Positions 9,579 to 33,950 of a stretch of 64,000 bases of DNA are shown here, in pieces. The position numbers were made by a program, and so were the translations under genes. The stretch is from an uncultured Roseovarius sp. (GTDB lineage: Bacteria; Pseudomonadota; Alphaproteobacteria; Rhodobacterales; Rhodobacteraceae), in NCBI GenBank assembly GCA_964389425.1, contig CAYMEC010000003.1:1065-65064 (forward strand), written 5' to 3'. Position 1 is the first letter of the stretch. Each line of letters starts with the position of its first letter. The notes under the pieces were generated by a model. It saw only the letters and a list, made by a program, of their open reading frames with translations. It had not been told where the DNA came from and made no database searches.

Positions 9579-11423
9579 ATGAGTAACGATTGGGACAACA
9601 CGACGAACGCGTGCATGAAGCAAGCCCGTGACAAGCGCTCATCTTCTATGAATTCGACCGCGATGCGCCGTCTGTCCGCTTTTGGGCGTGACGAAGATGG
9701 TGCCAGCGGCCTGCTGAGTTTTTACACAACATTCATGCTCCTGCTGATCGCGGGTCTGGGCATCGACACGATGCGCCAGGAAATGGAGCGCACGCACCTT
9801 CAATCCACGCTTGATTCTGCCGTGCTCGCAGGCGCGGGGGCACCTCAGGGCACCGATGCACAAGGTGTGGCCAACATCGTTGAAGACTATTTCGCCAAGA
9901 ATGACATGTCCCAGTTCCTCCACGAGATCGACCTCGACGGGGAAGATGCCGACATTGAGACCTCGCTGAACGCATCCAGAGTGTTTGCAGAAGCGTCGAT
10001 GGATATCGATACCTACCTGCTGAAATTGACGGGCGTCGACGCGTTGAATGCAAATGCCGCGGCCCAGGCCGAGGTTGCAACGCCGAAACTCGAAGTGTCG
10101 CTTGTGCTTGACGTTTCGGGCTCCATGCGCGGCACGAAGCTGGCCAATTTGAAGACAGCCGCAAACTCTTTCGTTACGACCATTTTGGGTCAATCCGACC
10201 CGGGCGACACTTTCATTTCCGTCGTTCCATTCGCGTGGACCGTGACGCCGGGCCCAGATGTCTTCGAAGAGCTGACCGTCGCCAAGACGCATGATTACTC
10301 GACGTGTCTGCGGTTTGGATCTTCCGATTACAACAGCCCGAACATCGACCCAAGCTCGACTTACGATCAGCAGATCTACACTTCCATCTATGGGTCATTC
10401 AACGACTTCAACAGAAGCTGGCGGTCCTGCTTTGCCGACGCGAACGCTGTGATTTTGCCATTCTCAACAAGCGAAGCCGATCTGCATTCACACATCAACG
10501 GTTTGACAGCAGATGGCAACACGTCAGCGCATATCGGGATGAAGTGGGGCGCCGCGATGCTCGACCCGGATTTCCAGAGCGTAGCAAGTAGTCTGCAAGG
10601 GAAAGGCGTCGTTGACGCGGCCCTTACGAGCATCCCCGCTCAGTATGCCGAACCTGAAACGCTTAAGATCATCGTGCTTATGGCGGACGGTCGCAACACG
10701 ACCTCCTACTATTTCAACGACAACAGCGCGTATCGCGGCCCGGATTCCGACCTCTATCGCCTGACATGGCAGGAAATGGAATTCGACTATGCATGGCGTG
10801 AGTTGACGGCGGGTACAGAGTACTCGGATGACCAATCCAAGTGCAGCCAGTCCGACTGGAATTGCGAATACACTGCGACCGGTGAACAATTCTCGGCATA
10901 CTACCTGTATGACGATGGTGAATATCTCGACATCGAAGGGACAGGCCCGATCGACACCGAGCCTTTCAATGAGCAAGACAGCCCCGATGACGTGAGCACA
11001 GGTACGCCCAATGGCGGCACGCCCACATGGATTGAAGATGACGTATATGAGGACTTCCAGGATCATCCTGCTTTCGTGTCTGATGAACGTCTGGATTGGG
11101 AAGAGGCCTGGGGCCTGATGACACCGAACTGGTACGGTCACACGACCGGCGATTGGCGTCCTTGGAACGACTATGTGGGCGGCCAGCGTGAGGGCGGCGG
11201 TACGAAAGACACCCGCATGCAGTCCATCTGTTCTGCCACCAAGAACGAAGGCGTGGTCGTTTACACCATCGGCTATGACATCACGGCGAACGGCAATGCC
11301 GAAACGCAACTCGAAAACTGCGCATCAAGCCTCAATCACTATTACCCCACCGACGGTGACAATATCAGCGCCGCGTTCAACTCGATCGCGTCAAACGTGA
11401 AAAACCTGAGGTTGACACAATGA
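9579..11423 (+). CDS. TadG-like Flp pilus protein with vWA domain (true start possibly ~9648)
   Basis: DEDG-hydrophobic prepilin-like N-terminus, LQSTLDSAVLAGA Tad motif, MIDAS DVSGS, GNTS, MADG; C-terminal VYTIGY...CAS...HYY. Confidence 0.85.
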   Translation: MSNDWDNTTNACMKQARDKRSSSMNSTAMRRLSAFGRDEDGASGLLSFYTTFMLLLIAGLGIDTMRQEMERTHLQSTLDSAVLAGAGAPQGTDAQGVANIVEDYFAKNDMSQFLHEIDLDGEDADIETSLNASRVFAEASMDIDTYLLKLTGVDALNANAAAQAEVATPKLEVSLVLDVSGSMRGTKLANLKTAANSFVTTILGQSDPGDTFISVVPFAWTVTPGPDVFEELTVAKTHDYSTCLRFGSSDYNSPNIDPSSTYDQQIYTSIYGSFNDFNRSWRSCFADANAVILPFSTSEADLHSHINGLTADGNTSAHIGMKWGAAMLDPDFQSVASSLQGKGVVDAALTSIPAQYAEPETLKIIVLMADGRNTTSYYFNDNSAYRGPDSDLYRLTWQEMEFDYAWRELTAGTEYSDDQSKCSQSDWNCEYTATGEQFSAYYLYDDGEYLDIEGTGPIDTEPFNEQDSPDDVSTGTPNGGTPTWIEDDVYEDFQDHPAFVSDERLDWEEAWGLMTPNWYGHTTGDWRPWNDYVGGQREGGGTKDTRMQSICSATKNEGVVVYTIGYDITANGNAETQLENCASSLNHYYPTDGDNISAAFNSIASNVKNLRLTQ

Positions 11424-11971
11424 TCAAAAGATCTGCGATCACGGGTCTGCGCACCCATATCCACAACTTTGCCCGCGACGAAGGCGGTTCGGCTTCGGTG
11501 GAATTCATCCTGGTGATGCCAATCTACATCACGATCATGGTGATGGGTGTGGAACTGGGCCTGATTACGCTGCGCCACACGCTTCTGGAACGCGGTCTTG
11601 ATATCGCCGTTCGGGAGGTGCGTCTGGGCACGGGCACCGCGCCGCAACATGACGATATCAAGGACATGATCTGCGCCAATTCGCTGATGCTTCTGGATTG
11701 CCAGAACAAATTGCAGCTGGAAATGCGCTCTGCCGATATCCGGTCCTTTGCCTCTCTGGACACGTCTGCGGACTGCACCGACAGCGCCGAGCCGACCAAA
11801 CCCGTTCGCGAATGGACCCCTGGTCTGCAAAACGAATTGATGCTGCTTCGTGCATGCCTGAAATACGAACCGATCTTTCCCGATGCTTTCCTTGGCAGCG
11901 CGCTGGACACGGACGCAAACGGCGAAGCCTCTGTCATCGTGACAAGTGCCTTTGTGCAGGAGCCTCTTTGA
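11420..11971 (+). CDS. TadE-family pseudopilin
   Basis: DEGGSASVEFILVMP prepilin-like motif, AVREVRLG, paired cysteines, C-terminal QEP. Confidence 0.87.
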   Translation: MIKRSAITGLRTHIHNFARDEGGSASVEFILVMPIYITIMVMGVELGLITLRHTLLERGLDIAVREVRLGTGTAPQHDDIKDMICANSLMLLDCQNKLQLEMRSADIRSFASLDTSADCTDSAEPTKPVREWTPGLQNELMLLRACLKYEPIFPDAFLGSALDTDANGEASVIVTSAFVQEPL

Positions 11972-11972
11972 T

Positions 11973-12536
11973 ATGACCTACTGGCCACTGATCAAATCCT
12001 ACCTTCGCGACTTCGCCGAAGACACGCGCGGCACCATCATGGTGGAGACCGTTTTGACCTTGCCGATGATGTTCATGGGCCTCGCAGCCATGTTCGAATT
12101 CTTCGAACTGCACCGGTTCCAAAGTACGCGGGACAAAGCCACTTACACGATTGCAGACATGCTGTCGCGCGAACAGGCGGTGATCAACGATGTCTATATT
12201 GACAACGTTAAAGTGCTGTTTGACGAAATCGCGGATGATTACGGCGACAACGCGATCCGCGTCTCCATCCTCGATTATGATGCGGGCGATGACGAATACG
12301 GGGTGGTCTGGTCCGAGGTACGTGGCCCGAATACTCTTTCGCCACTGACTGACGCTCAGGTCCGCGACGATCATGATATCCTGCCCATTCTTGATGATGG
12401 TGAACAGGTGATACTGGTGGAAAGTCAGGCGCAGTATCGCACGATCTTTGACGTAGGATTTTCCGATCAGATGGTCATGAACACGCGCGTGTTCACATCC
12501 ATCCGTTTTGCCCCGCAGCTGACCTTCGAAAACTGA
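11973..12536 (+). CDS. TadE/TadF-family pseudopilin
   Basis: DTRGTIMVETVLTLP motif, KATYTIADMLSRE, C-terminal RFAPQL; start MTYW at 11973 just after the upstream stop. Confidence 0.8.
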   Translation: MTYWPLIKSYLRDFAEDTRGTIMVETVLTLPMMFMGLAAMFEFFELHRFQSTRDKATYTIADMLSREQAVINDVYIDNVKVLFDEIADDYGDNAIRVSILDYDAGDDEYGVVWSEVRGPNTLSPLTDAQVRDDHDILPILDDGEQVILVESQAQYRTIFDVGFSDQMVMNTRVFTSIRFAPQLTFEN

Positions 12537-18573: not shown

Positions 18574-19167
18574 TTAAAGCTGTTCACTGGCATCCCAATA
18601 CGGCTCAAGCAACATACCGATCAGATCTTGGGCTTTCTCACGGTCAAAGCTGTCCATGAAAAGGAAGTAATCCGCCCAGAACCCTTCCAGCATGGCAATC
18701 GTCGCAGTTGCAAGATCCTGTGCAAGGGATGGGTCGTTTTCCGATTGGCCCAACGCATTCGCAATGGCGGTGGTGTAGATATTCCGCAGTCGGTGATCCC
18801 GCGTGGATGAGAACTCGCGAATTTTCGGATCGCTTTGCGCAAGGCCGCGCAGGACAGTCAGAACCGCGATCGTGTCCGCGTTCAGAACCTCTGCACACAG
18901 ATCAGCCCGCACCATCGCGCGTACGATATCCCGAGGGTCGGGGCCCGAGGCTTTCGTCAAACGCTCGATCTTTTCGAAATACATCTCGCCGAAGCGTTCC
19001 GCCGCAGCCCGCAGCAGGTTTTCCTTGTTGCCAAAGGTTTTCATGATCATGGCGCGGGTCAGTCCGGCCTCGGTGACGATATTGGTCACGGTCGTTCCTT
19101 CGAACCCATGTTTGGCGATGGACCGGATGGTGCCATCGACAAGCCTGTCTGCGGCGGACTTTGACAT
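18574..19167 (-). CDS. TetR family regulator (BetI-like C-terminal domain)
   Basis: IRSIAKHGFEGTTVTNIVTEAGLTRAMIMKTFGNKENLL HTH; divergent from the dehydrogenase operon. Confidence 0.88.
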   Translation of the reverse strand: MSKSAADRLVDGTIRSIAKHGFEGTTVTNIVTEAGLTRAMIMKTFGNKENLLRAAAERFGEMYFEKIERLTKASGPDPRDIVRAMVRADLCAEVLNADTIAVLTVLRGLAQSDPKIREFSSTRDHRLRNIYTTAIANALGQSENDPSLAQDLATATIAMLEGFWADYFLFMDSFDREKAQDLIGMLLEPYWDASEQL

Positions 19168-19315: not shown

Positions 19316-21385
19316 ATGTCACATTACGCATCCCTTTTCGAGCCTGTGGCCGTTGGTCCGGTCACCTCCCCCAACCGGTTTTACCAAGTGCCCCATGCCT
19401 GCGGTATGGGCCATCTGCGGCCCGGGGCCCATGCGGCCATGCGGGGCACCAAGGCGCGTGGCGGCTGGGGTGTGGTCTGTACCGAGGAATGCGAAATCCA
19501 TCCATCCACCGATCTGTCGCCTTATCCAGAACAGCGGCTGTGGGATGAACGCGATATTCCCGCGCTGTCGCTGATGGTAGAGGCCGTGCATGGCGAAGGA
19601 TCGCTGGCGGGGATTGAGCTTGTCCATAACGGCCATATGGCGAGCAACCTCTACACCCGCCTGCCAGTCCTATCGGTGGGCGAACGGCAATTGGCCGATG
19701 GCTACCCGAAGATGGCACGCGTGATGGACAAGCAAGACATCCGGGACCTGCGCCGCTGGCACAGGCAGGCCGCACGCAACGCCAAACAGGCGGGGTTTGA
19801 CATCATCTATGTCTATGCAGGCCATGAGATGTGCTTGCCGCAACATTTCCTTCTGTCCCGTTACAACCAGCGGATGGACGAATATGGCGGCTCTCTTGAA
19901 AACCGCGCACGGCTTATCCGGGAGTTACTCGAAGAGACCAAGGACGAAGTGGGCGACACCTGCGCGGTTGCCCTGCGGCTGGCCCTTGATGAAAGGCTGG
20001 GAGAAGACGGCATGCAAGCGCGCGAAGAGGGCCGCGCGGTGGTCGAATTGCTGGCTGATCTGCCGGATCTCTGGGACGTCAATCTCTCTGATTGGACGAA
20101 TGACACGCTGTCCTCGCGCTTTGAACCGGGTGAAGGCGCGCAGGTCGATTACATGCGCTTCGTGCGAGAGGTCACGGGTAAGCCAGTGGTGGGCGTCGGG
20201 CGCTATTCCTCCCCCGATCTGATGACAAAGCTGGTGCGCGACGGCGTTCTGGATTTCATCGGGGCCGCGCGCCCTTCCATCGCTGATCCCTATCTGCCCA
20301 CGAAGATCAAGGAAGGCCGGGTCGACGACATACGCGAATGCATCGGCTGCAACATCTGCGCCAGTTGCGAAGGCTTTGGAGTACCCATCCGTTGCACTCA
20401 AAACCCCACCATGGGCGAAGAATGGCGGCGCGGCTGGGATCCGGAGGTGATCGACAGCAAGGTCACTGACACATCCTGTCTTGTCGTGGGCGCGGGTCCA
20501 GCGGGGTTGGAATGCGCCTTGCAACTGGGCCGGCGCGGCTATGACGTGACGCTGGCAGACGCACGGGCCGATTATGGTGGGCGGGCTTTGCTGGAAAGCG
20601 GACTGAAAGGGCTAGGACCGTGGCGGCGGGTGGTGGACAACCGCCTCTATGAACTGCGGCAAATGCCCAACGTAGCGATGTTCAAGGACAGCCGCGTCGA
20701 TATCGATATGGTGGCTGCGGTGCAGGCTGATCACGTCTTCATTGCGACCGGTGCCACGTGGCGCAACGACGGCACAGGCCGGACGCATTTCGCGCCATTC
20801 GCCTGGCATCCGAGCCTCAATATCCTCACACCTGATGACATCATGGCGGGCGCAGAACCCAAGGGACGCATCGTGATCTATGACGATGATCACGGATATA
20901 TGGGCGGGACACTGGCCAGCCATTTGGCGCATCTGAACCCAGTATTTCTGTCTTCCGCGAGCATCGTTGCGCCCTTCACGACCTTCACGTTGGAGCAGGC
21001 CAAACTGCAGTCTGAACTTGTCGAACACGGGCTTGACCTGCAACTCTCCGCCAAAATCTGCGACAGCACGGATGGGGCTCTGACGGTCGCATCTATCTAT
21101 GGCGGGGCCACGCGTCACGTTGTCTGCAATACGCTGATCCTCGTCACGGCGCGGCAGGCGAACATGGGGCTGGCGCGAGAGTTGCGTCAAACCGGGCAGA
21201 AGGTTGAGCTGATCGGGGACGCACTGGCACCGGGGCTGATTGCCGATGCCACCTTCTCGGGTCACCTCGCTGCGCGCTCGCTTGAGGAACGCGCAGACAT
21301 CGTGAACGCCGCGCCTTTCCGCCGGGAAATGACAGAACGGCCAACGATCCCTTCCACACCCCACCTTAAAGGAGCTGCAGAATGA
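19316..21385 (+). CDS. Histamine/trimethylamine dehydrogenase-family Fe-S flavoenzyme
   Basis: NRFYQVPH, GGW..VCTE, RLWD, ECIGCNIC...CTQNP [4Fe-4S] motif, MGEEWRRGW, VVGAGPAG; closest in my recollection to histamine dehydrogenase. Confidence 0.88.
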   Translation: MSHYASLFEPVAVGPVTSPNRFYQVPHACGMGHLRPGAHAAMRGTKARGGWGVVCTEECEIHPSTDLSPYPEQRLWDERDIPALSLMVEAVHGEGSLAGIELVHNGHMASNLYTRLPVLSVGERQLADGYPKMARVMDKQDIRDLRRWHRQAARNAKQAGFDIIYVYAGHEMCLPQHFLLSRYNQRMDEYGGSLENRARLIRELLEETKDEVGDTCAVALRLALDERLGEDGMQAREEGRAVVELLADLPDLWDVNLSDWTNDTLSSRFEPGEGAQVDYMRFVREVTGKPVVGVGRYSSPDLMTKLVRDGVLDFIGAARPSIADPYLPTKIKEGRVDDIRECIGCNICASCEGFGVPIRCTQNPTMGEEWRRGWDPEVIDSKVTDTSCLVVGAGPAGLECALQLGRRGYDVTLADARADYGGRALLESGLKGLGPWRRVVDNRLYELRQMPNVAMFKDSRVDIDMVAAVQADHVFIATGATWRNDGTGRTHFAPFAWHPSLNILTPDDIMAGAEPKGRIVIYDDDHGYMGGTLASHLAHLNPVFLSSASIVAPFTTFTLEQAKLQSELVEHGLDLQLSAKICDSTDGALTVASIYGGATRHVVCNTLILVTARQANMGLARELRQTGQKVELIGDALAPGLIADATFSGHLAARSLEERADIVNAAPFRREMTERPTIPSTPHLKGAAE

Positions 21386-22959
21386 GCGATGTCCAAACCG
21401 CCCCCCGCACCCGTCGCAGAGGCGCAGGGCGCGCCGCCCGTGTCGCGCAACGCGAAGCCGTTGCGCCATCTCCCGCCATCTGGCCGGGTATCCCCGGGGG
21501 CAAGTTCCTGCCACTTGAGCCACGCGATATGGAGCGGGTGCATGACGCCGCGCTCACCATTCTGGAGCGCACCGGCATTGCTGAACCGACCCCTGAATTG
21601 CTGGAGATCGTTCTGCCCAAGGGTGCGGTCTTGAAAGACGGACGGCTCTGCTTTCCGCGCGCCTTGATGGAGGATTTGCTATCGGTTGCGGCCAATGAAT
21701 ACTACGTCCACGCCCGTGGAAGTCGTACGGGGAAGGACGACATTCACTGCCGCAAGAACCACGTCTTCTTTTCCAATTCCGGCACCGCAGTTACCACGTT
21801 CGAACCCGAAACGCGAAGCTACCGCCCGTCGGTTGCAAGGGACATCTATGATTTCACGCGGCTCGTGGATGCGCTGGACAACTATCACATGCTGGGCGCG
21901 ACGGTGCTGGCGACCGATGTGCCGGATGACTTCGAACATGACATGACGCAGGTCTACGCCATGATGGCGGGCTCTGAAAAACCGGCCTGCATGTCCTTCC
22001 GCAAAGCCGAGCATATCAAACCCGCGCTGGAGATTTTCGATCTGGCCTCAGGGGGTGACGGCGCGTTCCTGAAAAAGCCTTCTGTGATTTTCGGCGGATG
22101 TCCCATCGTCTCCCCCCTGCGGTTTGGGCAGGAAAACCTCGAGACGTTGATGGAAGCCAGCCGCCTTGGCCTGACCAGCGACATCGCCGTGGCACCACAA
22201 TCAGGCGCCACTGCCCCTGCCCCGCTGGCCGGGATTCTTGCGCAGGTTGTCGCGGAGACCTTGGCCTGCGTGGCCGTCGTGAACCTGATCACGCCGGGCT
22301 GTCCTGTTTCCTTTGCCGCCTGGCCTTTCATCACCGACCTGCGCACCGGGTCCTTCACTGGCGGCAGCGGGGAACAGGCGATCCTCGCGGCGGCCGCCGT
22401 GCAGATGGGCAATTTCTATGACCTGCCCAATTCCGTGGGGTGCGGCATGACCGATGCCAAGATCCCCGATGCGCAATACGGGTTCGAAAAGGCGCTGACC
22501 TACACGCTTGCCGCCCATGCCGGGGCGAACCGTTTGTGTGAGGTGGGCGGCATGATGGGCTCTCTGATGGGGTGCAGCTTTGAATCCATGGTAATCGACA
22601 ATGACATCATCGGCGCCATAGCCCGCACCCTGCGCGGGATCGAGGTGAGCGATGATACGTTAAGCGTCGACACGATCCACGAATGCGCCACGGGCCCGGG
22701 ACACTACCTGGGGCATGGGCAGACGTTGGAGGTGATGGAATCCGAGTATGTCTATCCCACGCTGATGGATCGCGGCCCCACCGATCAGTGGGAGACCGAA
22801 GGGTCCAAAGACCTCTTTGAGCGCAGTCGGGACCGGGTGCAGGAGATCATGGAAGATCACTTTCCCAACTATCTGAGCCGCGAAGCCAGTGCCAAAATCC
22901 GGGAACGGTTTCCGATAAAACTGTCACCGGCGCACCTGAACCGGTCGCGTATCCGGTGA
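21382..22959 (+). CDS. Trimethylamine methyltransferase (MttB/MtgB superfamily), non-pyrrolysine
   Basis: Arg-rich N-terminus, SPLRF, SGATAPAPLAG, DLRTG..TGG..EQ, DAKIPDAQ.G.EK, VIDNDI; no in-frame TAG. Confidence 0.9.
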   Translation: MSDVQTAPRTRRRGAGRAARVAQREAVAPSPAIWPGIPGGKFLPLEPRDMERVHDAALTILERTGIAEPTPELLEIVLPKGAVLKDGRLCFPRALMEDLLSVAANEYYVHARGSRTGKDDIHCRKNHVFFSNSGTAVTTFEPETRSYRPSVARDIYDFTRLVDALDNYHMLGATVLATDVPDDFEHDMTQVYAMMAGSEKPACMSFRKAEHIKPALEIFDLASGGDGAFLKKPSVIFGGCPIVSPLRFGQENLETLMEASRLGLTSDIAVAPQSGATAPAPLAGILAQVVAETLACVAVVNLITPGCPVSFAAWPFITDLRTGSFTGGSGEQAILAAAAVQMGNFYDLPNSVGCGMTDAKIPDAQYGFEKALTYTLAAHAGANRLCEVGGMMGSLMGCSFESMVIDNDIIGAIARTLRGIEVSDDTLSVDTIHECATGPGHYLGHGQTLEVMESEYVYPTLMDRGPTDQWETEGSKDLFERSRDRVQEIMEDHFPNYLSREASAKIRERFPIKLSPAHLNRSRIR

Positions 22960-24221
22960 CGGCGCTCGCTCAAACCTCGTCCTTGAAATCCATCGCCTCG
23001 ATCCTGCTGTGCGTCGGGTTTCTGGTGGCGGGCAATGGGCTGTTTCAAACGCTCTTTCCCTTACGCGCGGATGCCGAAGGGTTCCCGGTCGTCGTCATCG
23101 GCTTTCTCGGCACCGCCTATTTCGCAGGCTTTGCCATCGGGTGTTTCTGGTGCCCTCGGATCATCAAGTCATCAGGGCATATTCAGGCTTTTGCGGGCGT
23201 TGCCGCGCTGACCACGGCCATATCGCTTGCGTTTCCGATCCTGCCCGATGCCTACACCTGGGCGCTTCTTCGTTTTTTGCAAGGCATTGCTTTTGCCGCA
23301 CTTTTCGTTGTCATCGAAAGCTGGCTCAACGATTGCTCGGACAATTCCAATCGCGGGCGCGTACTGTCAGGCTACATCATCGTGTCCAATCTCATGATGA
23401 TTGCAGGGCAGTTGATGATCAATCTCTACGCGGTCGAGGCAGATAAGCATTTCATTCTCGCTGGGATTTTGATCTGCCTGGCCATCGTGCCCCTCACGCT
23501 TGTACGCATCACGGCACCCACGCCGATCACCACCGCGCGGATCGATTTGCGCGCCCTCTACCGCCTGTCACCCGTGGGATTGATCGGGTGCTTCCTCGTC
23601 GGCACGGCGGAAGGTGCGTTCTGGTCACTTGGCCCGGTTTTTGCCCAGTTGCGGGAATTTGACGTGAGCGATGTGGCCTTCCTGATGGCCGCCTTTGTGC
23701 TGGGTGGCACTCTGAGCCAATGGCCACTTGGGTGGCTCAGCGACAGGGCGGATCGCCGCTATATCATTGCAGCACTTGCCTTTGGCAGCGTCTGCACGGG
23801 GCTTGTGATCGGCTATGTGGATCTGACAGGCGATGCCGCGATTTTCGCGCTAGCCGTGGCCCATGGCGCGCTCATGGTGCCGCTTTACGCCATGTGCCTC
23901 AGCCATGCCAATGACTACGCGCCGAATTCCAAAATGGTTGAAATCAGCAGCGGGCTCTTGCTGGCCTACGCCACAGGGGCTGCGCTTGGACCGGTAGTGG
24001 CCTCTGTCTTCATGGGGCCGGATGGCAGCGGACTTTTTGCGTTCATTGCCTTCGTTCTTCTGATCCTTGGTGTGTTCACCTGTTTGCGGATCGTCAGTCA
24101 CAACCGCGATTATGATTATGAGGAGCGCGCGGAGTTTGTGCCGGTGCCCAAAACCACATCCGTTGTGTTCTCGCTTGAGGAAGACGATGAGGTTGCAGCT
24201 AGCCCTCCTCCACCTGCATGA
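22956..24221 (+). CDS. MFS transporter (YcaD-like)
   Basis: About 12 hydrophobic segments, ESWLN...RG.VLS.Y and QWPLGWLSDR.DRR motifs; GTG start overlapping the mttB stop. Confidence 0.88.
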   Translation: MTALAQTSSLKSIASILLCVGFLVAGNGLFQTLFPLRADAEGFPVVVIGFLGTAYFAGFAIGCFWCPRIIKSSGHIQAFAGVAALTTAISLAFPILPDAYTWALLRFLQGIAFAALFVVIESWLNDCSDNSNRGRVLSGYIIVSNLMMIAGQLMINLYAVEADKHFILAGILICLAIVPLTLVRITAPTPITTARIDLRALYRLSPVGLIGCFLVGTAEGAFWSLGPVFAQLREFDVSDVAFLMAAFVLGGTLSQWPLGWLSDRADRRYIIAALAFGSVCTGLVIGYVDLTGDAAIFALAVAHGALMVPLYAMCLSHANDYAPNSKMVEISSGLLLAYATGAALGPVVASVFMGPDGSGLFAFIAFVLLILGVFTCLRIVSHNRDYDYEERAEFVPVPKTTSVVFSLEEDDEVAASPPPPA

Positions 24222-26304
24222 GCACATCCACCGCCAGAACGCCGTCTTCGTAGACAAAAAGCGGATTGATCTCCAGTTCGACCACCTGACCCGCTCGGGC
24301 GACCACCTGGTTCGCCAAACCGGCAAGCGCGGCCGTAACACACGCCATATCGGCCCTTGGCCCGCCCCGGAACCCGTCCAGCAGTTTCGCCACGCGCAAA
24401 ACGGCCAAGGCCCGGGCAATATCCGCCTCTGTCGCAGGTAGCAGCAGGGTGGATACGTCTTCAAGAAGCTCCACCAGCACGCCGCCACTGCCCAGGGTCA
24501 TGGACAACCCGAATTGCGGGTCGCGGCGGATCCCCACAATCAATTCGGCCAAAGGACGCGGTGCCATGGGTTCCAACAGGAACGTGTCCGTTACCGCGGT
24601 TTCAGAATATTGCGCGACCGATGCTTGCATCGTGTTTGCTGCTGTCACCAACGCGTCAGCCGTGTCTATCCCCAAGGCGACAGCCCCGGCTTCGGTTTTG
24701 TGGGCAAGCTCTGCGCCCATCATCTTCAAAGCAAGAGGATAACCCACCTTTTCCGCCGCAGAGATCAGGCCATCCACATCGGCCAAATGTCCCGCAGGGA
24801 CGGGAAACCCGGCCTCCGCCAGATATGCTTTGCCCTCCGCCTCATTCAACCTGCGGGGCGTTTGTGCCTCTGTCGTCATCACAATCGGCGGGGCGGGCGC
24901 GCCCAATATCCGAGTCCGCGCGGCCTGCCACCGCGCCGCATCCCGCATAGCGTCCAGCGTCTCATGAATGCCCTGCATCGGGGCAATGCCGCGCGCGATG
25001 AAGGCCTCTCGAATATGCGCAGGCATGTTTTCAGGGATCGTCGCGCAGATCGCAGCAGGCAGGCCCACGGAAACGGCAGCATCTGCAAAGGCATGACCAT
25101 CGTTGGTATAGAAATACTCACCCTCATCCAGACCGGGGGCGGGGTAATCCTGCACCAGAAGCGTGGCATCTGACGGGATCGTCTCCATGGCAGAGGCAAA
25201 GACCGGACGGGTGAGATCAGGCTGGCCCCAGATGGGCGTCGTGTAGTCGAGCGGGTTGCTGACCGTTGCGATGGGCGGCAGCAATTCTGTCAGGGTTTTG
25301 CGGGCTTTGTCATCAGGTTCCGGGAAGTTAAGCCCGATCACTTCGGCATAGTCCGCCAGCATCGTGGCCCCGCCGCCTGAACAGGTGAAGCCCATTATCC
25401 GCGCGCCTCTCGGCGCTCCTGAAACACAGAGGAACTTAAGAGTTTCAAGAAGTTGGGAAGGGTTGGTCACGCGGATTACGCCCAAACGGTCGAAGAGCGC
25501 GTCATACAGCGTATCTGACCCAGCCAGTGACCCAGTGTGGCTGAGCGTGAGAGTTTCACCAATGGAGGAACTGCCCGTTTTCAGCGCTACAACCGGTTTG
25601 CCCCCACGCATGGCCTTCAGCGCGGCCCGCTCAAAGGCTGACACGTCCGAGAGGCCTTCGATATGCAAACCGATCGCACGCACTTCTTCGCGTTCGCACA
25701 AAAGATCCAATAGTTCTGTCAGGCCAAGATCCGCCTGATTGCCGACAGAAGCCATATAGGCCATGGGCAAAGACCGCTGGCTCATCGTGATGTCCGACGA
25801 AAACATCCCCGACTGCGTGATGATCGCCGCACCAAAGCCGGGACAGGTGCCGCCATGGGCAAACGGCCAGAGCGCACAGTTGCCCACGTAGTTGATCAGC
25901 CCGTAGCAATTTGGACCAATCAGAACCATGTCACCCAGCGCATCCTTCAGCGCCTCTTCAAGCGCCTGACCTTCCTCATGGGCCTCCCCGAACCCGGCGG
26001 AATAACAGATGATCCCGCCCGCGCCCCGCGCCGAAAGCCCCCGGATTGTTTCCGGCACATGTTTGGCAGGGATCGCAAGGAAGACCGCATCAGGGGCTTG
26101 GGGAAGATCGTCAATGCTGGCCACGCAGGGCAACCCGGCCAGCGTATCGCGTCGTGGATTGACCACCCACATCTCGCCCTGAAACCCCGCCCGGCGCGCC
26201 TCTCCGATCGCCACGGCGGCATCTGTGCCACCGATGAAAGCGATGTGTCCGGGGTTGAGCAGCCGCTCGAAGTTTCGCCGTTTGGCAGGGGTCACGCGGG
26301 TCAC
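24199..26304 (-). CDS. NDP-forming acyl-CoA synthetase (fused alpha/beta; BcoAB-like candidate)
   Basis: N-terminal CoA-binding domain, GPNCYG, QSG, SVGNQAD, SHTG phospho-His, C-terminal ATP-grasp HKTEAG...ELEINP. Confidence 0.85.
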   Translation of the reverse strand: MTRVTPAKRRNFERLLNPGHIAFIGGTDAAVAIGEARRAGFQGEMWVVNPRRDTLAGLPCVASIDDLPQAPDAVFLAIPAKHVPETIRGLSARGAGGIICYSAGFGEAHEEGQALEEALKDALGDMVLIGPNCYGLINYVGNCALWPFAHGGTCPGFGAAIITQSGMFSSDITMSQRSLPMAYMASVGNQADLGLTELLDLLCEREEVRAIGLHIEGLSDVSAFERAALKAMRGGKPVVALKTGSSSIGETLTLSHTGSLAGSDTLYDALFDRLGVIRVTNPSQLLETLKFLCVSGAPRGARIMGFTCSGGGATMLADYAEVIGLNFPEPDDKARKTLTELLPPIATVSNPLDYTTPIWGQPDLTRPVFASAMETIPSDATLLVQDYPAPGLDEGEYFYTNDGHAFADAAVSVGLPAAICATIPENMPAHIREAFIARGIAPMQGIHETLDAMRDAARWQAARTRILGAPAPPIVMTTEAQTPRRLNEAEGKAYLAEAGFPVPAGHLADVDGLISAAEKVGYPLALKMMGAELAHKTEAGAVALGIDTADALVTAANTMQASVAQYSETAVTDTFLLEPMAPRPLAELIVGIRRDPQFGLSMTLGSGGVLVELLEDVSTLLLPATEADIARALAVLRVAKLLDGFRGGPRADMACVTAALAGLANQVVARAGQVVELEINPLFVYEDGVLAVDVLMQVEEG

Positions 26305-27461
26305 GCCCCAAGCGGGCGCAGGATCGACCGGGTGATGATATGGCGCTGAATTTCGCTGGTGCCGTCCCAGATGCGTTCGAGCCGGGAATCACGCCAAAGG
26401 CGTTGGATAGCCAGTTCTTCCATCAGCCCCATACCGCCATGGATTTGCACCGCGTCATCGGCGATCCGACCCAGTATTTCGGAACAAAACACCTTTACCA
26501 TCGCGGCATCCTGATCCGCCATCTGACCCTGCTCGTGGCGAGCCACTGCGTCATCCACCATCAGATCCGCCGCGCGCAGGTTCATCGCGCCATCCGCCAA
26601 GCGGAACCCTGTCGCCTGAAACTGACCGATAGGTTTGCCAAACTGTTTGCGGTTCGCGGCCCAGTCCGTGGCCATCTCCAGAATGCGTTCGGCCTTGCCA
26701 CAGCAGGATGCGCCGACCCAGATGCGGCCCATGCCCAGCCACTGGCCCGCAATCTCAAATCCCCGCCCCTCTTCGCCGAGGATCTTGTCCGGCCCAACGC
26801 GCACATTGTCGAAGCTGAGCGCATAGGTCTTGTAACCACGGTAACTGACGGATTTCGTTCCCTCGCGGCAATCAAACCCCTTCAGGCCCACATCCACCAG
26901 AAACGCCGTCACGCGTTTGCGTTTGCCCCTTGGCGTGTCATCCTCACCCGTCGCGGCAAAAACGATGGCAAAGTCAGGCATGCAGGGACCAGAGATGAAG
27001 TGTTTGGACCCATTGAGGATCCAGTCATCACCATCCCGCACGGCATTCGATTTCATACCCATGGCATCGGACCCGGCCTCGGGTTCGGTCAGCGCAAAAA
27101 GCTCGCGTTTGTCGCCCCGCACGCAAGGCAGCAGATACTCCTCGCGCTGGTCGCCCTCACAGGCCAGCAAAATCTCCGTCGGGCGCGCGGCCCATGCATG
27201 CAGGGCATGAGTCGTTTTGCCGTATTCACGCTCAATCAGCTTTTGCGCGCGCAGGGACACGCCGCCGCCACCAACGTCTTCGGGCAGGTTGCAGGCATAC
27301 AGGCCCAGCTCTTTCGATCGCGCTTCAATTTGGCGGCCCAAATCCTCGGGCACCTCGCCCGTGCGGTCCACCATCTCTTCATGAGGGTAGCATTCTTCCT
27401 CAAGAAACCCGCGCACAGTGGCCAGAAGCAGTTCTTCTTCGTGGGACATATGCATGTTCAT
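26301..27461 (-). CDS. Acyl-CoA dehydrogenase (BcoC-like candidate)
   Basis: FALTEPEAGSD, GSKHFIS, RKQFG, QIHGGMG, IWDGTSEIQR. Confidence 0.92.
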   Translation of the reverse strand: MNMHMSHEEELLLATVRGFLEEECYPHEEMVDRTGEVPEDLGRQIEARSKELGLYACNLPEDVGGGGVSLRAQKLIEREYGKTTHALHAWAARPTEILLACEGDQREEYLLPCVRGDKRELFALTEPEAGSDAMGMKSNAVRDGDDWILNGSKHFISGPCMPDFAIVFAATGEDDTPRGKRKRVTAFLVDVGLKGFDCREGTKSVSYRGYKTYALSFDNVRVGPDKILGEEGRGFEIAGQWLGMGRIWVGASCCGKAERILEMATDWAANRKQFGKPIGQFQATGFRLADGAMNLRAADLMVDDAVARHEQGQMADQDAAMVKVFCSEILGRIADDAVQIHGGMGLMEELAIQRLWRDSRLERIWDGTSEIQRHIITRSILRPLGA

Positions 27462-27472
27462 CGCGTGCTCCT

Positions 27473-28363
27473 CTAACTGTCCGCGCCGCGCAGACGCAGT
27501 TTGTTGCGCGCTTCTTGCGGCGTGAGGGCACGACCGCCCATGCGCTCGATGATCTCGACGACACGCGTCACAAGCTGGCCGTTGGTGGCCGGCACACCGC
27601 GATCAAGCCAGATGTTGTCCTCCAGTCCCACACGCACATTGCCACCCAGGGCGACGGCAGCAGCGGCCATCGGCATCTGCATTCGGCTGATCCCAAAACT
27701 GGCCCAGCTGGCACCGGGGGGGAGTTGGGATTTCATCGCCGACATAATCTCTACCGACTGATCCGCACCCCAAGGGATGCCGAGGCAGAGCTGGAACATA
27801 GGCGGAGCATCGATCAGACCCTCATCGACCATAGCCTTTGCAAAACGGATATGGCCCAGATCGAACACCTCAAGTTCCGGCTTCACGCCCCACTCCTGCG
27901 TCAGCGACGCCATTCGGCGCAACATGGGCGGGGTGGAGATGTAAATCTCGTCCCCATTGCCGAAATTGAGCGTCCCGCAATCGAGCGAACAGATCTCCGG
28001 CATGCATTCCTTGATATGGGCAAGGCGTTCTTCCGCGCCGATCATATCGGTGCCGGGGCCGGGCATGGCAGGATCATCGGCGGAAGGGGTCCAATCCCCG
28101 CCCATCCCGGCGGTCAGATTGATCACGACATCGGTGTCAGACGCCCGAACCAGATCCACCGCTTCCTTGAAAAGCCCTGTATCGCGGGATCCTTTGCCTG
28201 TCTCAGGGTCGCGCACATGAAGATGGGTAATGGCCGCACCGGCCTTCGCCGCCTCGATGGCCGCATCCGCAATTTGGCGCGGCGCAACCGGCACGTGCGG
28301 GTTCTTGGCAGTGGTGTCTCCCGCACCCGTCACGGCGCATGTCACGATGACATCGAAATTCAT
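27473..28363 (-). CDS. Beta-keto acid cleavage enzyme (BKACE/DUF849), CdhC-like dehydrocarnitine-cleavage type
   Basis: [32 protein letters not shown]; strongly resembles remembered Pseudomonas CdhC sequence. Confidence 0.88.
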
Positions 28364-28413
28364 GGGCTCTCTCCCTCTTGTCCCGAGTTTGGGCAGGGAT
28401 GCCGCGAATAATG

Positions 28414-28453
28414 TCGATTTTTCGCCATTGCCGATCTATAAAATGGCGATAAA
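28414..28453. promoter_or_regulatory. Inverted TCGCCATT repeats in the BKACE/GlxA divergent promoter
   Basis: TCGCCATT (28422-28429) and AATGGCGA (28442-28449) with a 12-nt spacer; TCGATTTTTCGCC (28414-28426) recurs at 34149-34161 on the minus strand. Confidence 0.6.
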
Positions 28454-28482
28454 GTTTACCAAGCGCAGGACGAGACAGGGCG

Positions 28483-29535
28483 ATGTCATCGACAGCAAAA
28501 TCAGCCGAGCCAAAGCGGATCGCCTGCATCCTGCTGCCGCGTTTCAACATGATGGGTATGGTCAGTTTGCTGGAGCCAGTTCGCATTGCCAACTACCTCT
28601 CCGAGGCGCCGCTTTACCAGCATACGTTCCACGCATCCAAGGCCGGTTCAGTTCCCGCGAGCAATGGCATGGAAATCACTTGCGATGGCCTGCCAGAGGC
28701 ACTGACACGAGATGACATCGTGTTCGTGGCGGGCAGTTGGGGGGCGGAAACCTACGATGATCCTGCGCTCTTGGCTTGGCTCAGACGGCAGGCACGGCTT
28801 GGTATCCGACTCTGCGCCCTGGAGATGGCCAGTTATGTCTTTGCCCATGCGGGATTGCTGGCGGGGCGGCAGGCGACGGCCCATTGGTCCTATCTTGCGG
28901 GGTTTCAGGAGAAATTTCCCGACATTCTGGCCGCCGAGCAGCTTTTCACCTTAGATGGCGGCATCATGACCTGCGCAGGGCTGACCGCAGCGAGTGACTT
29001 GATCTTGCATCTCATTGGGGAGGACCACGGTGCGCCACTGGTGGGGGAAATATCCGATATCATCATGCATCACCCGGTGCGCCCCGCGCAAACGCCACAA
29101 CGCAAGACCATGGGCCGCGGGGTGGAAACGCTGCCCGAAAGCGTGCAGACGGCGATTGATCTGATTGAGCGCAATATCACGGAACCGCTGCGCGTCCCGG
29201 ATATCGCCCGCGCGGTGGGTATTTCGCAACGCCAGTTGGAACGACAGTTCAACCAGACCATCGGTTGCTCGGTTGTGCAGTTCGGAATGCTGCTCAGGCT
29301 GCAACACGCGCGGGTTCTGCTGATTTCCACGGATCTCAGCGTACGGGAGATCTCAGCCGCGTCAGGGTTCAATTCGCTGTCGCATTTTGCCTATGCGTTC
29401 CGAAAATGCTTTGACCGGCGGCCCAGTGAATACCGGCACGCCTGGCCGGATGGCGAGGACGCACCGAGTTGGCCGGGGACATTGGCAAAGTATCTCGATA
29501 CGCTTCAGGTCAACCAGCGGGTGCGGGGAGACTAA
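28483..29535 (+). CDS. GlxA-family AraC regulator (DJ-1/PfpI sensor + HTH; CdhR/GbdR-like)
   Basis: LEPVRIAN, GLLAGRQATAHW, TCAG, C-terminal SQRQLERQF...SGFNSLSHFAYAFR. Confidence 0.92.
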   Translation: MSSTAKSAEPKRIACILLPRFNMMGMVSLLEPVRIANYLSEAPLYQHTFHASKAGSVPASNGMEITCDGLPEALTRDDIVFVAGSWGAETYDDPALLAWLRRQARLGIRLCALEMASYVFAHAGLLAGRQATAHWSYLAGFQEKFPDILAAEQLFTLDGGIMTCAGLTAASDLILHLIGEDHGAPLVGEISDIIMHHPVRPAQTPQRKTMGRGVETLPESVQTAIDLIERNITEPLRVPDIARAVGISQRQLERQFNQTIGCSVVQFGMLLRLQHARVLLISTDLSVREISAASGFNSLSHFAYAFRKCFDRRPSEYRHAWPDGEDAPSWPGTLAKYLDTLQVNQRVRGD

Positions 29536-29652
29536 AGTGTCACGACGGCGCAGGTTCAAGGCCATTGGGGCACCCCGCCTTTGTCCACTGCCCGATGGAC
29601 GATTGCTTGCAACCGCTGAGAGGTGGGTCCCACCCAAGCCATGGCAAAGCCG

Positions 29653-30597
29653 CTATGTCGTATCCCACACGGCCTTCAGAACGGCCACGATTTTTCGATC
29701 CCGTTCGGCGGCCATATCCTCAAAATGCCGCTCACCCGCCATGACATTGCAGCCATCAACCATACGGTCGCGCAGTTCCTGCGTCAGTTCGGGCGCCTCC
29801 AGCCGCGTCCAGGGCCATTTGAGCGCGGGGCCGAATTGGTCAAGGTTCGTGGCCATGCCCCCCTCTCCACAGGCCACATGAAACGCCATGCACTGGCCCT
29901 GTACCACCATGCGGGGCGCCGGGCCGTTTCTGAGCGCGATGTCGATATCCTCGGGCGTCGCCTCCCCATTGGCGACCATGTGGAGCGCCTCGCGCCAAAG
30001 CGCCTCTTGCAGGCGGGTCCCGACGAAACCGGGGACTTCCTTTTTCATCACCAGCGGGGCCTTGCCCGCGATCTCATAAAAGCGCGCAGCCCAGTCTACG
30101 GCCTCCGGCGCGGTTGTCTTCCCGCCCACGATTTCCACCAGCGGCAACAGGTATGGCGGGTTGAACGGGTGCCCGATCACGCAGCGTTCGGGTGTGGGAC
30201 ACGTGGCTTGTATCTCCGTCATGGTGAGACCGGAGGTAGAGGACCCGATGATAATCTCGGGGGGCAGGATCGCGCCCATCCGGGCGTAGAGGTCCTGTTT
30301 GATCTCCACCCGCTCCGGCCCGCTTTCCTGCACGAACTCCGCGTCCTCCAACGCCTCTTCCAGATCGCTGGTCACGGTCAGTCGGTCAAGCGACGCATCC
30401 GGCGCAAGACCCAATTCCGTCAAGCTGCGCCAACCCGTTTCGATCACCGCCATCAGGGCATCGTGTTCCGCCGCATCGTGGATATAGGCCGTCACATCAT
30501 AGCCCCGCGCCAGAAAATGCGCCGTCCAACCGCCCCCGATAGGGCCCGCGCCAAGGCTGGCTACGCGGGTGATCGAGTGTGGATCGCAATACATCAT
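29653..30597 (-). CDS. 3-hydroxyacyl-CoA/carnitine 3-dehydrogenase family (CdhA/LcdH-like), no fused thioesterase
   Basis: LGAGPIG Rossmann motif, QESGPE, SSTSG, GHPFNPPYLLPLVE, LWREALH, QFGPAL..PWT; start at 30597 overlaps the caiD stop. Confidence 0.87.
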   Translation of the reverse strand: MMYCDPHSITRVASLGAGPIGGGWTAHFLARGYDVTAYIHDAAEHDALMAVIETGWRSLTELGLAPDASLDRLTVTSDLEEALEDAEFVQESGPERVEIKQDLYARMGAILPPEIIIGSSTSGLTMTEIQATCPTPERCVIGHPFNPPYLLPLVEIVGGKTTAPEAVDWAARFYEIAGKAPLVMKKEVPGFVGTRLQEALWREALHMVANGEATPEDIDIALRNGPAPRMVVQGQCMAFHVACGEGGMATNLDQFGPALKWPWTRLEAPELTQELRDRMVDGCNVMAGERHFEDMAAERDRKIVAVLKAVWDTT

Positions 30598-31397
30598 TCG
30601 CCCTTGAAGTTGGGTTCGCGCTTTTCGACGAAAGCCGCCACACCCTCGGCCGCGTCTTCGGATTTCAGCATCTTGCGGTAGATTGGCATCGGATCGGTGC
30701 GCATCTTTTGGAAGGCCTCCTCCAATGGATGGCACTCGATCTCGCGTTGCACCTCTTTCACCGATTGCATGGCCAGCGGCGCGGACCACGCGATAGACGC
30801 GGCCCATTCGCGCGCGGCGTCTATGAGGTCTTCTTTCGGAACGATCTTGTTGACCAGCCCGTAATGGGCGGCCTCACTCGCGGTCATGCGACGGCCCAGC
30901 AGGAACATCTCCATCGCGATGTTATGGGGGATGCGGCGAGGAAGGCGTTGCAGCGCGCCTGCATCGGGTACAATCCCAAGCGGCATTTCCGGCAGACCAA
31001 ATTCCACATGCTCTGACGCGATCAACAAATCACAAGCCATCGCCATCTCGAACCCACCGCCAATGGCCAATCCATTGATCGCGGCAATGACTGGTTTGTT
31101 GAGCGCCCAATTCTCCGTCAGACCGGTGAACCCACCAAACCCGTAGTCATCGCTTTCCCACCAGTTATCGAGCTGCATCTCGCCCGAATTAAGCGCCTTT
31201 AGATCCCAGCCGGCCGAGAAAATCTTTTCCCCGCCGCCGGTCAGGATGGCGCAGCGCAGGTCTTTGTCTTCATGCAATTCCTGAAATGCCGCCGCCAGCG
31301 CCCGCGAGGTGGGCACGTCGATTGCGTTCACCTTACCCCGTTCCAGCGTGACCTCCAGTACATGGCCGTCACGGACCACCTTCACACCGTCAGACAT
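30594..31397 (-). CDS. caiD: Carnitinyl-CoA dehydratase / crotonobetainyl-CoA hydratase
   Basis: NAID..TS, FSAGWDLKA, GF.GLTE, GGGFE, LPE..LGIVPD; closely matches remembered E. coli CaiD. Confidence 0.85.
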   Translation of the reverse strand: MSDGVKVVRDGHVLEVTLERGKVNAIDVPTSRALAAAFQELHEDKDLRCAILTGGGEKIFSAGWDLKALNSGEMQLDNWWESDDYGFGGFTGLTENWALNKPVIAAINGLAIGGGFEMAMACDLLIASEHVEFGLPEMPLGIVPDAGALQRLPRRIPHNIAMEMFLLGRRMTASEAAHYGLVNKIVPKEDLIDAAREWAASIAWSAPLAMQSVKEVQREIECHPLEEAFQKMRTDPMPIYRKMLKSEDAAEGVAAFVEKREPNFKGE

Positions 31398-31406
31398 GGT
31401 TTTCTC

Positions 31407-32441
31407 CTATTGAAAGGCGGGCATCACTTCGTCGCAGAAAAGCCGCATCGAGCGTTTCTGCGCGTCCAGATCAAGGCCCATTGAGGCATAGTAGATGAAC
31501 TCGTCTACCCCCAGCGCCTCATAGCGTTTGAGTTTTTCGATCACCCGATCAGGGGAGCCAAAGAGCAGGTTTTCTTCAAGCATGTCCGGGTCGTATTGCT
31601 CGCGGCCTGCCAGCTCTTCCAGCGGGATTTGCGCGGGGAAGCCGTTCGTCACGCCGCCTGCATTGCGGAACAGGTTTTCAAACTGGCCGAGCACCAGCCG
31701 AATGGCATCGATGGCCTTCCGCCGGTCGCCTTCATTGTCATAGACAGCGGCGTGACGCATCATCGCAAACGTCGGACGAAATCCGTTCCCGGCCTTCTCC
31801 ACCGCCTCATCCAGTTGTTTCTTGTAAAGCTCTGCCTCCGAAAAGGGGCGCGTCAGGGGCCAGCTCATCACGTGGCATTTTTCGCGCAGCGCGTAATCAT
31901 AGGTGATCGGCGACCGGGCCGCGACCCAGACGGGGATGTCTTGCTGAAGCGGTTTGGGGCAGGAGGTAGAACTGGGAAACTGCCAGAACTGTCCGTCATG
32001 CGCGTAATCGCCCTGCCAAAGTGCGCGCACGGCAGGCAGCATTTCCTGCATGTATTGCCATGCATCCGATTGCTTGAGTCCCGGGCGCATACGGTCAAAT
32101 TCACGTTGGTAAGCACCCGACCCGATGCCAAACTCCAGCCGCCCATCGCTGAGCAGATCCAGCATCGCGGCCTCACCGGCTAGGTTGATCGGGTGCCAAT
32201 AGGCCGCCGTCGCCACGGCTGTCCCCAGACGGATCGTATCGGTGTGTTCCGCCCACCATGTGAGCAACTGAAATGGATTGGGGGCAATCGTCATTTCCAG
32301 CGCGTGGTGTTCTGCGGCCCAGACGATGTTGAACCCGCCCTCTTCGGCCATCTGCACCATCTCCAGCGTGTGATCGCGGACGGCGCGCATGTCGGTCGCG
32401 TCATTCATGCGCTCCAGATTCACGGCAAGTTGGAACTTCAT
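31407..32441 (-). CDS. LLM-class flavin monooxygenase, TgnB-like
   Basis: W..EHH..E.TIAPNPF, WHPINLAGEAAM, GDYAHDG.FW.FP..TS.PKP.Q, YEALG.DE, VMPAF; these match my recollection of the trigonelline oxygenase TgnB family. Confidence 0.82.
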   Translation of the reverse strand: MKFQLAVNLERMNDATDMRAVRDHTLEMVQMAEEGGFNIVWAAEHHALEMTIAPNPFQLLTWWAEHTDTIRLGTAVATAAYWHPINLAGEAAMLDLLSDGRLEFGIGSGAYQREFDRMRPGLKQSDAWQYMQEMLPAVRALWQGDYAHDGQFWQFPSSTSCPKPLQQDIPVWVAARSPITYDYALREKCHVMSWPLTRPFSEAELYKKQLDEAVEKAGNGFRPTFAMMRHAAVYDNEGDRRKAIDAIRLVLGQFENLFRNAGGVTNGFPAQIPLEELAGREQYDPDMLEENLLFGSPDRVIEKLKRYEALGVDEFIYYASMGLDLDAQKRSMRLFCDEVMPAFQ

Positions 32442-32468
32442 CGCGTTCTCCTTTATCGGCCCCGCCCC

Positions 32469-33950
32469 TCAGCGCATCACGAACGGATTGGCCATCGGCT
32501 CGTCCGAGGTGTTCATCCAGACCGTCTTGGGGCGCGTGTAATCATACATCGCCTGGAACCCGCTTTCGCGGCCATAGCCCGATCCCTTGATCCCGCCGAA
32601 CTCGGCGATGGGGGAGACAACGCGGTACGTGTTCACCCAAACGATCCCGGCGCGCACCGCGCTCGACATACGCAAGCTCCGCGCGCTGTCACGGGTAAAG
32701 ATGCCCGCGGCCAGCCCGTGTTCGGTGTCATTTGCCAGTGCCAACGCCTCATCTTCGGTCTTGAACCGTTGCACGCACAAGACAGGGCCGAAAAGCTCGG
32801 TATCCACGATGCGCAAATCCTGCCGGGGGCAGGACAGGATCGTGGGTTCAAAAAACAGCCCCTCCATCCCCTCGGGGCGTTTGCCACCGGTCAGGATGTC
32901 CGCGCCTTCTTCCTGCGCAAAGGCCAATTCGCGTTCGATCATATCCCGCTGGCCGGTGGTACAAAGCGGTCCCATCTGCGTTTCTTCCAGCAGCGGGTCC
33001 CCGATCTTGATCTCCTTGGCCTGCGCCACCATCCGCGCAAGAAACTCGTCGGCGATATCGTCATGCAGATAAAGCCGCGAACCGGCCACACAGCTTTGCC
33101 CGGTAGCGCCGAAGATGCCAGCAATGGAGGCATTGACCGCGCTTTCGATATTGGCGTCCTCGAAGACGATGAAGGGGGATTTGCCGCCCAGCTCGAGGCT
33201 GACTTCGGCAAAATTGTTCTTGGAGTTTTCCAGCACATGGCGGGCCGCGCCCGGCCCCCCGGTAAAGGAGATGCGCGACACCAGCTTGTGCCCCGTCAAC
33301 GCCCGGCCACAAGGGTCGCCATGGCCTGTGACGATGTTCACCACGCCGGGCGGGATGCCCGCCTCTTCAATCAGTTGGGCAAACTCCAGCATCGCGGCTG
33401 AGGCATGTTCAGAGGCTTTGATGACAATCGTGTTGCCCGCCGCAAGCGCGGGGCCAACCTTCACGGCCACCAAGAAAAGCTGGCTGTTCCATGGCACGAT
33501 GGCGGCCACAACGCCCAGCGGTTCACGCTTGGTAAAGACAAACAGATCAGGTTTGTCGATGGGCAGGGTTTCACCGCTGACTTTATCGGCACAGCCTGCG
33601 TAGAAATGGAAAAACTCGGCGATGTATTTGGCCTGCCAACGGGTTTCCTTGAGCATCTTGCCGGTATCGATCGTTTCCGTACGGCCCAGATCCTCTGACC
33701 GGTCCGCCAGCAGATCGCCCAGACGGCGCAGATGTTTGCCGCGCTCTGACGGGGTCATCCTGGACCATGGGCCAGTCGTGAACGCCTCGTGGGCGGCACG
33801 AACAGCGCGGTCGACATCGGCCTCGGTCGCCTCGGGCACCCGTGACCAGACCTGACCGGTGGCAGGATTGACGCTGTCGAAAGTTGCGCCGTCCGAGGCA
33901 TCCACCCATTCGCCATTGATCAGCATCTGATAGGTTTGGATTTTGTTCAT
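32469..33950 (-). CDS. Aldehyde dehydrogenase, TgnC-like
   Basis: LELGGKSP (Glu) and GQSCVAG (Cys); LPIDK, VPWNSQLFL.AVKVGPALAAG and FTGGP are shared with remembered TgnC. Confidence 0.88.
   Translation of the reverse strand: MNKIQTYQMLINGEWVDASDGATFDSVNPATGQVWSRVPEATEADVDRAVRAAHEAFTTGPWSRMTPSERGKHLRRLGDLLADRSEDLGRTETIDTGKMLKETRWQAKYIAEFFHFYAGCADKVSGETLPIDKPDLFVFTKREPLGVVAAIVPWNSQLFLVAVKVGPALAAGNTIVIKASEHASAAMLEFAQLIEEAGIPPGVVNIVTGHGDPCGRALTGHKLVSRISFTGGPGAARHVLENSKNNFAEVSLELGGKSPFIVFEDANIESAVNASIAGIFGATGQSCVAGSRLYLHDDIADEFLARMVAQAKEIKIGDPLLEETQMGPLCTTGQRDMIERELAFAQEEGADILTGGKRPEGMEGLFFEPTILSCPRQDLRIVDTELFGPVLCVQRFKTEDEALALANDTEHGLAAGIFTRDSARSLRMSSAVRAGIVWVNTYRVVSPIAEFGGIKGSGYGRESGFQAMYDYTRPKTVWMNTSDEPMANPFVMR

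Follow-up and report, generated by a model that had tools for sequence, protein, structure and literature searches.

The dehydrogenase gene described here, in a stretch of 64,000 nucleotides of DNA that was analysed as a whole (the window), probably encodes a functional amine dehydrogenase of the TMADH/HADH/HisD family whose FMN would be bound non-covalently, because the cysteine that links the flavin in related enzymes has been replaced by an alanine, next to a cysteine that was already there. The loss of the linking residue is probably an ordinary substitution with a known precedent leaving the FMN non-covalent, and Cys29, the neighbouring residue, is best read as an inherited residue of the loop and not as a relocated attachment site. 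Since a non-covalent FMN is already known in the family (HisD), another such member is unsurprising. Of modest use are the natural orthologues with and without the linking cysteine, up to 91% identical and sharing the same pocket and operon, which offer a ready comparison for the purpose of the 6-S-cysteinyl link.

Features of the dehydrogenase gene and its operon (positions in the window)
Feature	Position	Strand	Remarks
BetI-type TetR regulator, divergent	18574..19167	-	PF13977 and PF00440
TMADH/HADH/HisD-family iron-sulfur flavoprotein gene	19316..21385	+	689 aa, ORF without internal stop
Ala28 (GCC), site of the flavin-linking Cys	19397..19399	+	TMADH Cys30, HADH Cys35 (gapless alignment)
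Cys29 (TGC), +1 site	19400..19402	+	Variable position: N, C, T, S, I, D, A
Tyr167-x-x-His170 catalytic pair	19814..19825	+	HADH Tyr176/His179; invariant in homologue alignment
Arg221, flavin-contacting Arg, kept	19976..19978	+	TMADH Arg222, Rhizobium HDH Arg225
[4Fe-4S] motif CxxCxxC-X11-C, Cys342/345/348/360	20339..20395	+	Sequence motif
GAGPAG nucleotide (ADP)-binding motif, residues 392-397	20489..20506	+	Sequence motif
MttB-family methyltransferase, no in-frame stop	21382..22959	+	PF06253, E = 1e-98; 4-bp overlap with dehydrogenase gene
MFS transporter	22956..24221	+	PF07690; 4-bp overlap with mttB

A full-length iron-sulfur flavoprotein

The 689-residue product is collinear with the family over its full length, with an OYE barrel, an Fe-S linker, an ADP-binding domain and a third domain, and it matches Pfam families PF00724, PF07992 and PF22620. 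In a phmmer search against solved structures, 3K30 comes out on top (E = 1e-198), and 6DE6, 6L6J and TMADH (1DJQ/1DJN) are also found. The AlphaFold model matches 3K30, 6DE6, 6L6J and 2TMD with TM-scores of 0.89-0.92 and Z of 48-50, which are whole-fold scores (Foldseek and VIA); this model is ligand-free and has a mean pLDDT of 83, with about 78 near the VPHACG motif and about 35-40 at the Fe-S loop. By its sequence, the protein is a member of the TMADH/HADH/HisD family of Fe-S flavoprotein amine dehydrogenases (cluster 3 of the 2-ER SSN), and no NCBIfam model scored above its own cut-off against it. The [4Fe-4S] and YxxH motifs, which the initial annotation had described as kept, are indeed complete, with Cys342, Cys345, Cys348 and Cys360 on the one hand and Tyr167-x-x-His170 on the other. 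In the alignment, Asp263 corresponds to HADH Asp270 and completes a Tyr167/His170/Asp263 triad (for the roles of these residues in HADH, see PMC10180351).

Histamine dehydrogenase (Nocardioides 3K30, Rhizobium 6DE6) is the best match in both sequence and structure (46-47% identity, Z 48-50), and shares with our protein the Tyr/His/Asp triad, the equivalents of Trp267 and Glu79 and the Fe-S motif. TMADH (2TMD, and 1DJQ for its C30A variant) has the same architecture at 37-38% identity.

Alanine at the flavin-linking site

Codons 19397-19402 read GCC TGC, i.e. Ala28-Cys29, inside Q24-V-P-H-A-C-G-M-G32, as first annotated. Residues 4-106 align with residues 11-113 of the Nocardioides histamine dehydrogenase 3K30 with zero gaps, so that Ala28 matches Cys35, through which that enzyme forms its 6-S-cysteinyl-FMN link; the equally gapless alignment with TMADH places it at Cys30. 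The proposal that the canonical cysteine position is Ala28 here, and not Cys29, is thus borne out, and the Cys directly after VPH, the hallmark of the 6-S-cysteinyl-FMN enzymes (TMADH, DMADH, HADH), is absent. Since an identical protein is present on 22 contigs, the Cys-to-Ala change is real; together with the occurrence of VPHACG in 24 further clusters (90% identity clustering), this rules out a sequencing error as the source of Ala28.

Motif states and history of the substitution

Among the best 120 matches, query included, the two residues following VPH are CN in 45, CC in 44, AC (as here) in 25, CS in three and CT in one, the remaining two being a truncated sequence and one with VPQCCG. 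A wider set of 165 gives CC 71, CN 55, AC 25, CS 10 and CT 3. In the CC homologue P0116, a Gln replaces the conserved His ahead of the linking Cys (VPQCCG). From these counts, the +1 site is variable and a Cys lies beside the canonical one in many relatives; in most of the subfamily the +1 residue is Cys, whether the canonical Cys is present or not. The initial annotation had spoken of a cysteine shifted by one residue, a description that does not hold, as the canonical and the +1 cysteines occur together in 71 of the 165 sequences. A one-residue shift or an indel is ruled out by the gapless alignments and the existing CC state, and no indel was seen near the VPHACG motif in the alignments. 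Because the neighbouring Cys was there beforehand, nothing has moved, and Ala28 results from a simple replacement of Cys by Ala.

With the two motif columns excluded, AC sequences come out inside CC lineages in the trees, and we infer from these sequences that CC is the ancestral state of the subfamily. The C-to-A substitution has recurred about three to four times; in the careful tree, the starred branches require four C/A changes, of which some could be reversions. A single origin of AC was discarded, since AC monophyly is rejected by the AU test (p = 8.5e-6, two motif columns left out), and all AC origins fall within a single region of the subfamily tree. AC and CC proteins reach 90.7% identity, and P0019 (AC) and P0016 (CC) form a natural pair about 90% identical. 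No column changed alongside C-to-A in all three contrasts tested, and convergent compensating substitutions are therefore rejected. The distribution of the AC motif is patchy: one of 18 same-genus genomes carries an 84%-identical AC orthologue, the closest others carry CN or CD, and a sample of 400 further genomes from the order yielded no instance of the AC motif.

Alanine without a neighbouring cysteine elsewhere in the family

HisD of Pseudomonas geniculata N1 (6L6J), a 6-hydroxypseudooxynicotine dehydrogenase/amine oxidase, has the same fold (TM 0.89-0.92) and, like our protein, an Ala at the linking site, reading VPHATA where the query reads VPHACG. Its FMN is non-covalent and planar according to a review, which also describes its close homologue Pno (Agrobacterium S33) as an active dehydrogenase with EtfAB as electron acceptor (PMC7688666). 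HisD differs from the query in having Thr at +1, other pocket residues and a nicotine-pathway context, and seems to belong to a separate lineage; no nicotine genes were found near the query dehydrogenase. At 46% identity the query is no closer to HisD than to HADH, and HisD was no part of the tree. At the linking site, the query is also the natural match of the engineered C30A variant of TMADH, whose structure (1DJQ) retains the fold.

A pattern scan of metagenome DNA, in which the linking site could be Ala, Ser or Thr and the +1 residue was left free, returned at least 120 matches. Among the matches listed, 104 were confirmed as homologues by blastp, i.e. 92 AS, 10 AT and 2 AC, so that 102 of the 104 have Ala without Cys at +1; these matches are dominated by one clade and give no estimate of frequency. 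Since AS and AT are abundant among the matches listed, an Ala at the site does not need a Cys at +1. An obligate coupling of the two is absent family-wide among these matches, and is not significant within the subfamily.

Some further observations concern the same family. The genome holds three more TMADH/HADH-family paralogues, with PHCNG, PHATG and PHCTG, of which the PHATG copy is another case of Ala at the linking site with no Cys nearby. They are located on contigs C1 (38407-40446), C2 (76649-78661) and C4 (52997-54849), and the one on C4 aligns as two pieces, the Fe-S region between them being absent, which could reflect a broken gene or a misassembly. Metagenomes contain a large clade of TMADH-like proteins, about 40% identical to the query (VPHASGFG, YVYGAH; e.g. 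L152, L114 and L101, range L090-L209), in which the flavin-linking Cys is missing and so is the second Fe-S Cys (CTGSNxC...C versus CIGCNxC...C), which suggests a site-differentiated or three-Cys cluster, as judged from the motif. Several alphaproteobacterial genomes (L042, L064, L230) carry two to four paralogues of the TMADH/HADH family arranged in tandem.

State of the flavin and role of Cys29

The FMN had originally been proposed to be non-covalent or differently linked; the former is likely, with HisD (6L6J) as a natural precedent, while a different linkage is unsupported. A point in favour of a role for Cys29 comes from the 88-row subfamily tree, which contains 17 AC and 19 C-x ingroup rows and none without both cysteines. 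The canonical Cys was lost four times, each time beside a +1 Cys, and the +1 Cys eight times, each time beside a retained canonical Cys. Under independent losses, the chance of seeing no double loss is 0.08 when roughly estimated as a product and 0.18-0.31 in simulations with branch-length placement; the missing double loss in these sequences is therefore a hint of compensation that is not significant. It could indicate a takeover by Cys29, in which a register shift or flip of the loop that follows His27 lets Cys29 form the cysteinyl-FMN bond, with the second Cys having made the canonical one redundant and permitted its repeated loss. Besides the pattern of losses, the retention of His27 and Arg221 would fit such a takeover, as the equivalents of both residues assist flavinylation in TMADH, and so would the recurrence of a change that needs two base substitutions (TGY to GCY). 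However, both residues are kept family-wide as flavin contacts, the His also in HisD, the AC origins are confined to one part of the tree, and neither an indel nor a convergent substitution is found near the motif. Moreover, in OYE-type barrels the residue after the one contacting N5 usually points away from the flavin, so that a bond to Cys29 would need a rearrangement of the backbone. Finally, members that have neither the linking Cys nor a +1 Cys are plentiful and include at least one characterised enzyme. We thus regard a takeover by Cys29 as quite unlikely. The same low probability is given to its extension to the whole MttB-linked subfamily, in which the FMN would be bound through Cys29 and the flavinylation site would have migrated via a CC intermediate several times independently. 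If true, it would represent a new geometry of covalent flavin attachment, a relocated self-flavinylation site not being described for the TMADH family.

A slightly less improbable, though still unlikely, alternative is that the FMN is non-covalent and that Cys29 has a supporting role, its packing holding the flavin or shielding C6 from hydroxylation, so that Ala28 is tolerated in the subfamily only together with Cys29. The absence of double losses in the subfamily would agree with it, as would the behaviour of C30A TMADH, which reportedly forms 6-hydroxy-FMN during turnover; the statistics are not supportive, and AT and AS enzymes exist without Cys at +1. The least credible reading, to which we assign very little probability, is that the gene is decaying and that the loss of the Cys is one step of its inactivation. 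The long branches in the AC clade containing the query and the failure to find the AC motif among the 400 other genomes of the order would speak for decay. Against it, the ORF is full-length, every catalytic and Fe-S residue is kept and the operon is maintained across homologues of 64-84% identity. In addition, dN is far below dS (0.16 versus about 2.1 between the query and an 80%-identical AC homologue), as expected under purifying selection, the ratio being rough since dS is near saturation. By these sequence criteria the dehydrogenase looks functional, and a working enzyme with non-covalent FMN and an inherited Cys29 is the reading we retain.

Substrate pocket

When the HADH pocket (residue set from PMC10180351) is mapped on the query, two of its eight sites are identical (Glu79 to Glu72, Trp267 to Trp260), three are conservatively replaced (Ile74 to Leu67, Phe77 to Tyr70, Asp358 to Glu352) and three are changed (Gln65 to Glu58, Asn115 to Met108, Tyr181 to Met172). 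Besides the missing linking Cys, the query departs from HADH at Gln65, Asn115, Tyr181, Phe77 and Asp358. In TMADH, the aromatic bowl consists of Tyr60, Trp264 and Trp355. This bowl is broken in the query, where Tyr60 is replaced by Glu58, Trp355 is without aromatic counterpart and only Trp264 is kept (Trp260). From the mapped residues, we infer an acidic pocket suited to a cationic amine, most likely not trimethylamine and probably not histamine.

Glu58, Glu72, Trp260, Asn262 and Asp263 are the same in AC, CC, CN, CS and CT members, Met172 nearly always, and the triad, Arg221 and the Fe-S cysteines are conserved across these types. As the pocket, catalytic and Fe-S residues match those of the Cys-retaining relatives, the loss of the Cys implies no new substrate, and any new substrate would be a property of the subfamily. 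The suggestion in the initial annotation of a new amine substrate may therefore apply to the subfamily as a whole, whose pocket is unlike those of TMADH and HADH, but not as something tied to the missing Cys. A substrate change tied to that loss is unsupported, CC, CN, CS and CT members having the same pocket and MttB context.

A conserved operon and a proposed pathway

MttB is encoded by the next gene in all AC loci inspected, and at 65-71% identity it is also found 3' of dehydrogenases of the Cys-retaining types CC, CS, CT and CN; no MttB was found within 7 kb of several more distant subfamily loci. The divergent arrangement of a BetI-like regulator and the dehydrogenase recurs in other loci (L085-L087, L089, L001, L213), and the MFS transporter is partly conserved, being present in L086 and the P0115 locus, with other transporters elsewhere. 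The BetI-like regulator/dehydrogenase/MttB module, which occurs in Ruegeria and many uncultured proteobacteria, also gives this observation a modest value. In the Ruegeria locus, a Rieske oxygenase lies between the dehydrogenase and MttB, with a PotABCD-like transporter upstream, and in L087 an aldehyde dehydrogenase gene is located 3' of the dehydrogenase/MttB pair. In the P0019 locus, the downstream mttB is split into two predicted ORFs, possibly by a frameshift. No characterised orthologue of the module turned up in the literature searched, and scanning the intergenic region between the divergent genes for promoters gave no hit.

Ten MttB-family proteins are encoded in the genome, and among them the operon copy fits the Pfam model least well. 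MttB-type proteins of Ruegeria pomeroyi demethylate glycine betaine via a separately encoded corrinoid protein, MtgC (PMC12478193); in the present genome, two small ORFs with a B12-binding domain (C44 and C32) are candidates for the corrinoid partner, as judged from their sequence. EtfAB-like (ETF-domain) genes are present on contig C16.

Encoded in this conserved module, the dehydrogenase probably acts on an N-methylated amine. By homology, MttB would demethylate a quaternary or tertiary amine. The dehydrogenase may oxidise a C-N bond, in either the substrate or the product, to an imine, whose hydrolysis would yield an aldehyde and a smaller amine. The amine is predicted to sit over the FMN in the acidic pocket (Glu58, Glu72, Glu352, Trp260, Met172), with reduction of the FMN aided by Tyr167/His170/Asp263, and electrons would pass from FMN to the [4Fe-4S] cluster and on to EtfAB. 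We lean towards a substrate of the N-methylated or cationic amine type, handled together with the co-encoded MttB under BetI-like control and common to the Cys-retaining orthologues. A functional analogy for this role is provided by the N-methylproline demethylases StcD and OYEBi, OYE/Fe-S flavoenzymes that demethylate N-methyl amines and are encoded in betaine-catabolic loci (PMC11759058); unlike the query, they belong to SSN cluster 2 instead of 3, have an altered Fe-S motif and are about 25% identical to TMADH.

A catabolic cluster of carnitine/betaine type adjoins the operon (24199-33950), with genes for an acyl-CoA ligase, an acyl-CoA dehydrogenase, a BKACE cleavage enzyme, a GbdR/CdhR-like AraC regulator, a hydroxyacyl dehydrogenase, a crotonobetainyl-CoA hydratase-like protein, an LLM oxidoreductase and an aldehyde dehydrogenase. 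No link to the dehydrogenase was seen, the genes of this cluster being absent beside the dehydrogenase in other loci. Upstream (9579-12536), the window contains unrelated Tad/TadE-like pilus genes, namely one for a von Willebrand-type pilus assembly protein and two TadE-like ORFs.
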